Part shown: piece after piece, positions 13 through 352 of the stretch
How the letters are laid out: each line of letters starts with the position of its first letter
Numbering within the stretch: the stretch's first letter is position 1
Origin: Escherichia coli
GTDB taxonomy: Bacteria; Pseudomonadota; Gammaproteobacteria; Enterobacterales; Enterobacteriaceae
Assembly (NCBI RefSeq): GCF_003334255.1
Contig: NZ_QOWU01000256.1
DNA length: 352 nucleotides
Strand: one strand, 5' to 3'
Translations under genes and position numbers: made by a program
The notes under the pieces: model-generated
What the model saw: the letters and a program-made list of their open reading frames with translations, nothing else
Told to the model about the DNA's origin: nothing
Database searches by the model: none

Positions 13-153
13 CTACTGCTTACACTGTAAGAACGCCGCAAACTCCGCTCCCCACAAATTCAGCCGGAACTCACACAACGAGCCGTGTAACATCCAGATG
101 GTGAAGATTACCGTCATACAAATTGTGACGGTGATGAGCGATTTTTGCGACAT
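13..153 (-). CDS. hok: Hok/Gef-family type I toxin, small inner-membrane protein, 46 aa (HokA-like)
   Basis: Minus-strand ATG at 153..151 and TAG stop at 15..13. An in-frame TAG lies 10 codons upstream (183..181) with no other start between, so the start is unambiguous. AGGAG Shine-Dalgarno (plus 163..167) sits 9 nt upstream of the ATG. Translation: MSQKSLITVTICMTVIFTIWMLHGSLCEFRLNLWGAEFAAFLQCKQ. Short polar N-terminus (MSQK), an ~18-residue hydrophobic segment, then a tail with the SLCE and AAFL.CK motifs characteristic of Hok/Gef proteins. Family assignment is from recalled HokA/HokE sequences, not a database search. Symbol is family-level only; the paralog is not assigned. Confidence 0.85.
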   Translation of the reverse strand: MSQKSLITVTICMTVIFTIWMLHGSLCEFRLNLWGAEFAAFLQCKQ

Positions 154-256
154 AACGCTTGTCTCCTGAGTGGAGAGGCGCTAACCTACTACTTGTGAAG
201 GTTGTACGGTCAGGGCCTCGGGTTAACATTAAAGTTGACTCGGGGCCTTTCCACAT
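71..256 (-). CDS. mok: mok-like overlapping reading frame (61 aa), probable translational-coupling ORF, not an independent protein
   Basis: The ORF from the supplied track (MWKGPESTLMLTRGPDRTTFTSSRLAPLHSGDKRYVAKIAHHRHNL...). It starts 103 nt upstream of the hok ATG, runs across the hok Shine-Dalgarno and start, and ends at TGA 73..71 inside hok in a different frame. This is the arrangement known for mok in plasmid R1 hok/sok. Its His/Arg/Thr-rich sequence has no recognisable fold. Start is uncertain: a GAAGG lies only 4 nt before the ATG at 256, and an alternative in-frame ATG exists at 229..227. Confidence 0.45.
   Translation of the reverse strand: MWKGPESTLMLTRGPDRTTFTSSRLAPLHSGDKRYVAKIAHHRHNLYDGNLHHLDVTRLVV
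159..187 (+). promoter_or_regulatory. Candidate sigma70 promoter for a Sok-like antisense RNA
   Basis: Plus strand: -35-like TTGTCT (159..164), 17-nt spacer (165..181), -10-like TAACCT (182..187) with T at position 1, A at 2 and T at 6. Predicted start around 191..195. The -35 overlaps the hok Shine-Dalgarno region on the opposite strand, as I recall for the Sok promoter in R1. Hexamers are moderate matches only. Confidence 0.4.
163..167 (-). promoter_or_regulatory. Shine-Dalgarno (ribosome-binding site) of hok
   Basis: Minus-strand AGGAG (plus-strand ctcct at 163..167) with a 9-nt spacer to the hok ATG at 153. Confidence 0.6.
194..252 (+). ncRNA. sok: Candidate Sok-like cis-encoded antisense RNA (type I antitoxin), about 57-60 nt
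   Basis: Lies between the candidate promoter (159..187) and a stem-loop plus TTT (214..250). Predicted architecture is a roughly 20-nt unstructured 5' tail (194..213) followed by a single 3' hairpin. It is fully complementary to the mok/hok mRNA from 4 nt downstream of the mok ATG to about 60 nt further on. Size and layout resemble Sok of plasmid R1 (about 64 nt). Ends are approximate. Confidence 0.4.
214..252 (+). terminator. Stem-loop with short U-run; putative intrinsic terminator and structural domain of the antisense RNA
   Basis: Plus-strand 214..227 (GGCCTCGGGTTAAC) pairs with 234..247 (GTTGACTCGGGGCC): 14 bp, 11 Watson-Crick plus 3 G-U wobbles (218/243, 221/240, 224/237), 6-nt loop ATTAAA (228..233), followed by TTTCC (248..252). 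On the minus-strand transcript the three wobbles become A-C mismatches. The U-run is only 3 nt, so termination efficiency is uncertain. Confidence 0.35.
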
Positions 257-306
257 CAGGCCTTCAGGTTCTCCCTCCAGCCATCAGCCGAAAGGCACCC
301 GCGCAT

Positions 307-335
307 AATCTACGATTTTTGCCCTGCACGGGCAA
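307..335 (-). promoter_or_regulatory. Candidate promoter for the mok/hok mRNA
   Basis: Minus strand: -35-like TTGCCC (revcomp of plus 330..335), 17-nt spacer, -10-like TAGATT (revcomp of plus 307..312). Predicted start near plus 300, giving an mRNA beginning GGGUGCCUUUCGGC... about 44 nt upstream of the mok ATG. Weak hexamers; the true promoter could lie beyond the right edge. Confidence 0.3.
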
Positions 336-336
336 C

Positions 337-352
337 AAAAAACCCGCCATCA
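337..352 (-). terminator. Possible 3' arm and T-tract of an intrinsic terminator for an upstream minus-strand gene, truncated by the window edge
   Basis: Minus strand reads ...TGATGGCGGG TTTTTTGTT: a GC-rich segment (plus 343..348) followed by a T6 tract (plus 337..342). The matching 5' arm would lie beyond position 352 and is not visible. Confidence 0.2.

Follow-up and report, generated by a model that had tools for sequence, protein, structure and literature searches.

A periplasmic location of the C-terminal tail has been reported for two Hok toxins, HokC from PhoA fusions (PMC8509063) and HokB (review, PMC8309996). HokB residue C46 forms DsbA-dependent dimers; pore formation, depolarisation and persistence all require these dimers, which are undone by DsbC and DegQ (PMC8309996; PMC12214031). 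Recoding of Tyr29 to Cys by mRNA editing makes HokB far more toxic, and the toxicity of this C29 form is abolished by C46S or C14S; deletion of dsbA also removes it, and DsbA brings it back (PMC12214031). Non-reducing blots indicate an intramolecular C29–C46 bond in edited HokB; with C29 present the 60-kDa DTT-sensitive dimer bands weaken or vanish, and in the C46S variant the freed C29 cross-links with other proteins (PMC12214031). HokA, in which both cysteines are encoded, is stated to be toxic without editing (bioRxiv 10.1101/2025.08.07.668861).

In a survey covering 1264 unique Hok peptides, the first tail position was Cys in 92% and Tyr in 4.8%, and the second was Cys in 34% and Tyr in 62%, with the Tyr codons located in the TadA editing motif TACG (bioRxiv 10.1101/2025.08.07.668861). 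In the numbering of Hok from plasmid R1, residues M1, C16, T18, L30, C31, E32 and E41 were more than 80% conserved across the same peptides (bioRxiv 10.1101/2025.08.07.668861). Cys substitution is tolerated in some cases: Hok R1 C16A and C31A kept their toxicity on overexpression in drop assays (bioRxiv 10.1101/2025.08.07.668861), and every substitution of HokC Cys15 was tolerated (PMC8509063).

Here we describe a Hok locus in a 352-nt stretch of Escherichia coli DNA (contig NZ_QOWU01000256.1), referred to below as the window. Its longest ORF is a hok-family toxin gene at 13..153 on the minus strand (46 codons followed by TAG), with the 46-aa translation MSQKSLITVTICMTVIFTIWMLHGSLCEFRLNLWGAEFAAFLQCKQ. 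The protein matched Pfam HOK_GEF (PF01848, E = 4.7e-8; residues 8-44 cover positions 6-42 of the 42-position model) and PHROG 251 (E = 2.8e-24), and PGAP labels the ORF 'Hok/Gef family protein' (WP_000078907.1). Its size and architecture, 46 aa with one N-terminal helix and a 23-residue tail, fall within the Hok/Gef pattern of about 50 aa and a tail of more than 20 residues. Alignments with HokA–E show that all seven family-conserved residues are found in it, as M1, C12, T14, L26, C27, E28 and E37. The minus strand of the window carries a type I toxin-antitoxin locus of the hok/sok type.

The best NCBIfam match was the HokA model NF007290 at 38.4 bits, and assignment as a HokA equivalog was rejected, this score being far under the curated cut-off of 89. 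The peptide belongs instead to a separate 46-aa cluster, cluster 72 (Table S2, bioRxiv 10.1101/2025.08.07.668861). An identical peptide, 72_1589 from plasmid LRP157, is listed among the tested Hok homologues in Table S2 of that 2026 preprint; 42 of 45 peptides in the screen were toxic, the non-toxic ones being 19_179, 60_1482 and 69_1540, and so not 72_1589 (bioRxiv 10.1101/2025.08.07.668861). A single-sequence phmmer search against 1.84 billion representatives gave only 16 matches, from which two long repeat proteins (P0060 and P0067) were discarded as false positives. HokA-like relatives could be reached only with a profile search. No solved structure was found for any relative, a literature search by RefSeq protein accession returned nothing, and no papers on the cysteines of this exact peptide were found in the searchable literature.

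Three Cys codons, all TGT on the minus strand, are present in the gene: Cys12 at 118-120, Cys27 at 73-75 and Cys44 at 22-24, so that the interval 22-75 spans exactly the Cys44 codon to the Cys27 codon. The first-pass annotation had placed Cys27 and Cys44 in the C-terminal tail and Cys12 in the hydrophobic segment, and the codon positions, hydropathy and an AlphaFold2 model all agree with it. A transmembrane helix is predicted from hydropathy and AlphaFold2 over codons 5-23 (85..141, minus strand), holding Cys12 and Trp20 (94-96), and is followed by the tail of codons 24-46 (16..84, minus strand). Mean Kyte-Doolittle hydropathy was 2.1 over residues 5-22 and near neutral over residues 24-46. 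The tail would be periplasmic by homology with HokC, through its PhoA fusions, and with HokB; the earlier statement that this is the location of the tail in Hok proteins agrees with what has been reported for both (PMC8509063; PMC8309996).

The AlphaFold2 model, built on a 93-sequence alignment, had a mean pLDDT of 73 overall and contained a helix at residues 3-23 (pLDDT about 80). In the tail it predicted, at low to moderate confidence (pLDDT 62-70), a beta-hairpin of residues 28-33 and 36-41. In this model Cys27 and Cys44 would flank the tail hairpin, and Cys12 would sit inside the single hydrophobic helix; in a strict hairpin register Cys27 is opposite residue 42, not 44.

The description of the tail as Trp-rich did not hold. 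W34 is the only Trp among the 23 tail residues, the other Trp of the protein (W20) being at the helix end, and the probability of at least one Trp in 23 residues is about 0.29. Position 34 is not conserved (Gly in 67 and Trp in 52 of 151 aligned homologues). Trp enrichment was rejected for these reasons, although Trp is indeed lacking from the tails of K-12 HokA–E and of HokW.

The tail cysteines are conserved. When homologues were aligned to the family profile, position 27 was Cys in 144/151 and Tyr in 4/151, and position 44 was Cys in 132/151 and Tyr in 5/151, so that Tyr was the chief substitute for Cys; position 12 was Cys in 105/151, Leu in 18/151 and Phe in 14/151. In the 93-sequence alignment positions 27 and 44 were each at least 90% conserved. 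An alignment with Hok family members had been proposed as a check on Cys conservation, and in it both tail Cys are kept. At a background of 1.1% Cys, at least two Cys in 23 residues would occur with a probability of about 0.03; chance is a weak argument for the tail Cys pair, and conservation is a strong one.

We compared the tail positions with those of the K-12 paralogues, taken from the MG1655 record, and with HokW. The two positions are 17 residues apart in the window protein, HokA, HokB and HokC/D/E/W alike. Cys27, in an L-C-E motif, is equivalent to Hok R1 C31, HokA C29 and HokB Y29; Cys44 is equivalent to C46 of HokA and HokB and to the TAC-GAA tyrosine of HokC/D/E/W. HokA (E. coli K-12 b4455) resembles the window protein in having both tail Cys encoded in the DNA (C29 as TGT, C46 as TGC). 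The two proteins also have in common a Trp where the helix ends and the motifs S-L-C-E and A-A-F-L-x-C-K. They differ in that the window protein is a prophage-borne protein of 46 aa, HokA is a 50-aa product of a chromosomal locus, and identity is 43%. In K-12 HokB (26% identity) C46 (TGC) aligns with Cys44, and the edited position 29, aligned with Cys27, is a Tyr codon (TAC then G) that needs TadA editing, unlike the TGT of the window gene. HokC, HokD, HokE and HokW show the reverse arrangement, with Cys at the first tail position and Tyr at the second (TAC-GAA). The paralogues are thereby in line with the survey of 1264 peptides.

The TACG motif is absent from the entire coding sequence of the window gene, and both tail Cys codons are TGT; both cysteines are therefore hard-coded, as in HokA. 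By homology with HokA, mRNA editing would not be needed to obtain them. Cys codons alternate between TGT and TGC among the paralogues, and a cluster-72 relative has TGC at position 27 (Table S2, bioRxiv 10.1101/2025.08.07.668861). The copy in phage 933W differs from the window gene at 7 synonymous and 0 non-synonymous codons, which points to selection on the protein. The TGT/TGC variation, together with the family-wide pattern of Cys or editable Tyr, argues for selection acting on the amino acid. A separate observation came from contig DBLSYH010000020.1 (1-941) of GCA_054811745.1, which holds three tandem 46-aa hok genes spaced by about 474 bp. Residue 27 of the middle gene is Tyr, but its codon context, TAT-GAG, is no TadA TACG site; it was rejected as an editing site and looks like a plain Cys-to-Tyr mutation.

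We hypothesized that the window toxin forms an intramolecular Cys27–Cys44 disulfide, made by DsbA and independent of editing, that gives its fully toxic form, and we put the probability of this reading at roughly 0.55. The N-terminal helix would insert in the inner membrane and leave the 23-residue tail in the periplasm, where DsbA would oxidise Cys27 and Cys44 within one monomer. The resulting disulfide would close the base of the short beta-hairpin, and the closed peptide would be a compact, protease- and DsbC-resistant, fully toxic form. The window toxin would then be fully active without mRNA editing; in HokB and in HokC/D/E/W, TadA would have to edit one TAC-G tyrosine to Cys. The presence of the Cys pair, as first noticed, is confirmed, and the interpretation given to it, that the tail cysteines could pair intramolecularly or mediate oligomerisation, is supported by homology and by the literature, both modes having been published for HokB (PMC8309996; PMC12214031). 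The disulfide-dependent dimerisation of HokB mentioned in the first-pass annotation corresponds to the reported DsbA-dependent C46 dimers (PMC8309996).

The second of these modes is the basis of an alternative in which the tail cysteines act mainly between monomers, through Cys44–Cys44 or mixed bonds, giving dimers or oligomers that build a membrane pore as unedited HokB does. Cys44 aligns with HokB C46, and Gef was reportedly described by Poulsen and colleagues in 1991 as a disulfide-linked dimer. The HokB C46 dimers, dependent on DsbA, reversed by DsbC and DegQ and required for pores, depolarisation and persistence, are the published precedent (PMC8309996; PMC12214031). These dimers, however, were observed with Tyr at position 29, and when Cys is at this position the 60-kDa bands fade or vanish (PMC12214031). 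Both Cys are hard-coded in the window protein, so an intramolecular partner would always be at hand, and we regard the intermolecular reading as improbable.

The substitution data bear on a second alternative, in which the cysteines are conserved yet dispensable for killing, and serve a secondary role in peptide stability, in turnover control or in meeting constraints of the overlapping, structured hok mRNA. Membrane damage would then come from the helix and tail without a disulfide, in keeping with the persisting toxicity of Hok R1 C16A and C31A. The first tail Cys is not universally required for killing, given that Hok R1 C31A is toxic on overexpression. In an article of 2021 on Hok/Gef cysteines in FEMS Microbiol Lett, Wilmaerts and colleagues reportedly found reduced killing upon Cys/Tyr substitutions in Hok, HokA and HokE, which is hard to square with the toxic C31A variant of the preprint. 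Further points in favour of dispensable cysteines are that HokC Cys15 is fully substitutable (PMC8509063) and that a natural C27Y variant, with its non-editable TAT codon, occurs in the tandem array described above. Against it, C46S or the loss of DsbA abolishes the toxicity of C29-HokB (PMC12214031), Cys is kept with differing codons (TGT/TGC) in paralogues with different mRNAs, and a lost Cys is almost always replaced by a Tyr encoded as TAC-G, and so editable to Cys, which implies selection on the amino acid. On balance this reading seems to us unlikely.

The possibility of an mRNA constraint was considered together with the structure of the locus outside the toxin frame. A Shine-Dalgarno sequence, AGGAG, read from the sequence at 163..167 (minus strand), lies 9 nt before the hok ATG, and its GGAG is invariant in 7/7 aligned loci. 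An overlapping mok-like ORF of 61 codons, out of frame with hok, extends over 71..256 (minus strand); its ATG does not vary among 7 diverged loci, and the arrangement is that of K-12 mokB/hokB. The hok mRNA leader, the region that a Sok antisense RNA would target, was located at 142..300 (minus strand) by Rfam RF01794, with a score of 35.8 bits (E = 1.1e-6) that is under the gathering score of 59. Although named 'sok', RF01794 matches the hok-sense strand, and so it models the hok mRNA leader, not the antisense RNA.

The mRNA 5' sequence GGGUGCC, at 294-300 (minus strand), is invariant in the 7 aligned loci and pairs with a conserved GGCACCC located about 60 nt past the left edge of the window, as read from a 99.4%-identical E. 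coli locus (L001, 5947-5953). The 361-nt full-length RNA of that locus gave an MFE fold with 5'-3' pairing and a z-score of -5.1, and the 5'-3' fold-back was also present in the consensus fold of the 7 loci. The fold-back, the mok ATG and a hairpin after the hok stop are kept in seven loci with up to 20 amino-acid differences in Hok. This hairpin (L001 5981-6004; alignment columns 303-325) follows directly on the stop and shows compensatory changes, such as two neighbouring G-C pairs replaced by A-U, which supports a real RNA stem. In 933W-like phages, GGCACCC overlaps the start codon, ATG, of the ORF that follows (ATGGCACCC...).

At its 3' end the coding sequence has a stretch of ~35 nt, window 16-50 (codons 35-46, GGAGCGGAGTTTGCGGCGTTCTTACAGTGTAAG), that was near-invariant across loci with 12-20 amino-acid changes elsewhere. 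In the consensus fold, UUUGCGGC (codons 38-40) is paired with the hok start region GUCGCAAA, and the Cys44 UGU codon is predicted to share a small hairpin with the stop codon. The near-invariance in nucleotides of this 3' third of the gene, its predicted pairing with the hok start and the predicted hairpin over Cys44 and the stop codons all count in favour of cysteines that are dispensable for killing. From the near-invariance and the predicted pairing, part of the conservation of the Cys44 codon within the subfamily may be at the RNA level. The intramolecular disulfide remains the reading that we prefer.

A putative hok promoter, chosen by eye at 307..335 (minus strand), consists of TTGCCC (330-335), a 17-nt spacer and TAGATT (307-312); with 8/12 matches it is under the scan threshold and can only be suggested. 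At 336..352 (minus strand), GGCGGG and the T-run after it appear to be the 3' half of a terminator belonging to the lom-family gene upstream, corresponding to a terminator-like site in L001. By analogy with sokB, sokC and sokW, Sok is expected to begin on the plus strand around 246-248, some 8-10 nt into the mok frame. The scan reported no sigma-70-like Sok promoter on the plus strand in window 230-306, and by-eye candidates there were weak and not conserved. Over hok the plus strand has a single ORF (98-169, 23 aa), which is opposite the helix-coding part and looks like a chance ORF. In K-12 it is the 3' ends of hokA and hokB that have tiny proteins, YsaE and YncP, annotated on the opposite strand (L003 901-972; L004 877-945).

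In plan the locus resembles hok/sok of plasmid R1, a post-segregational killing system: in both, a mok frame overlaps the toxin gene, the leader is structured, and the 5' and 3' ends of the mRNA fold back on each other. The window protein also contains the equivalents of R1 C16, T18, L30-C31-E32 and E41. It is unlike R1 Hok in that the latter has Tyr48 at the second tail position (numbering of bioRxiv 10.1101/2025.08.07.668861), and, compared with R1 hok/sok, the window locus fits the Rfam leader model below threshold only.

To place the locus in its genomic setting, we examined its occurrence in phages, plasmids and complete genomes. In short-tailed Stx-converting (933W-like) prophages it lies between a lom-family gene, annotated upstream as Ail/Lom family, and the gene that follows. 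Matches were found in 198 phage records and 34 plasmid records; of 5426 complete E. coli genomes, 1551 had a match. Phage 933W (NC_000924) encodes an identical 46-aa protein at 45660-45800 (L008 5661-5801), which is unannotated in the reference record and falls in the gap between lom and ST933Wp67. Phage 933W has two Hok loci, this lom-adjacent copy and the annotated hokW/mokW/sokW at 58460-58734. The toxic HokW is an inner-membrane protein that aids phage release, and the hokW deletion study makes no mention of the second hok locus of 933W (PMC8621323). HokW/sokW (933W / Sp5) is likewise a type I toxin-antitoxin locus of the Hok family, in an Stx prophage of the same kind. It differs in position (933W 58460-58615, against 45660-45800 for this locus) and in subfamily, HokW being a HokD-like protein of 51 aa.

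The tail Cys pair, its dependence on DsbA and its link to toxicity were already known from publications on the Hok family, and what the first-pass annotation hypothesized and proposed as experiments has counterparts in published studies of close paralogues. The finding is correct, but it is an ordinary one. RefSeq already labels the locus Hok/Gef, and the peptide has already been listed in a catalogue and formed part of a toxicity screen. Two consequences concern the phages and the subfamily. The second hok locus of 933W-type Stx phages, missing from the annotation, could mask the phenotypes of hokW deletions, and in this subfamily nature provides a counterpart to HokB/C/D/E that does without editing, of use in testing why some Hok genes encode Tyr and depend on editing.

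A doubtful but further-reaching possibility is that the lom-adjacent Hok is permanently in a high-toxicity form, with periplasmic disulfide formation (by DsbA) and reduction as its sole post-translational switch, so that Stx prophages would hold two differently gated Hoks. If this were true, these prophages would carry one editing-independent Hok and one, HokW, that depends on TadA, and killing or assistance to lysis would depend on how oxidised or reduced the envelope is.
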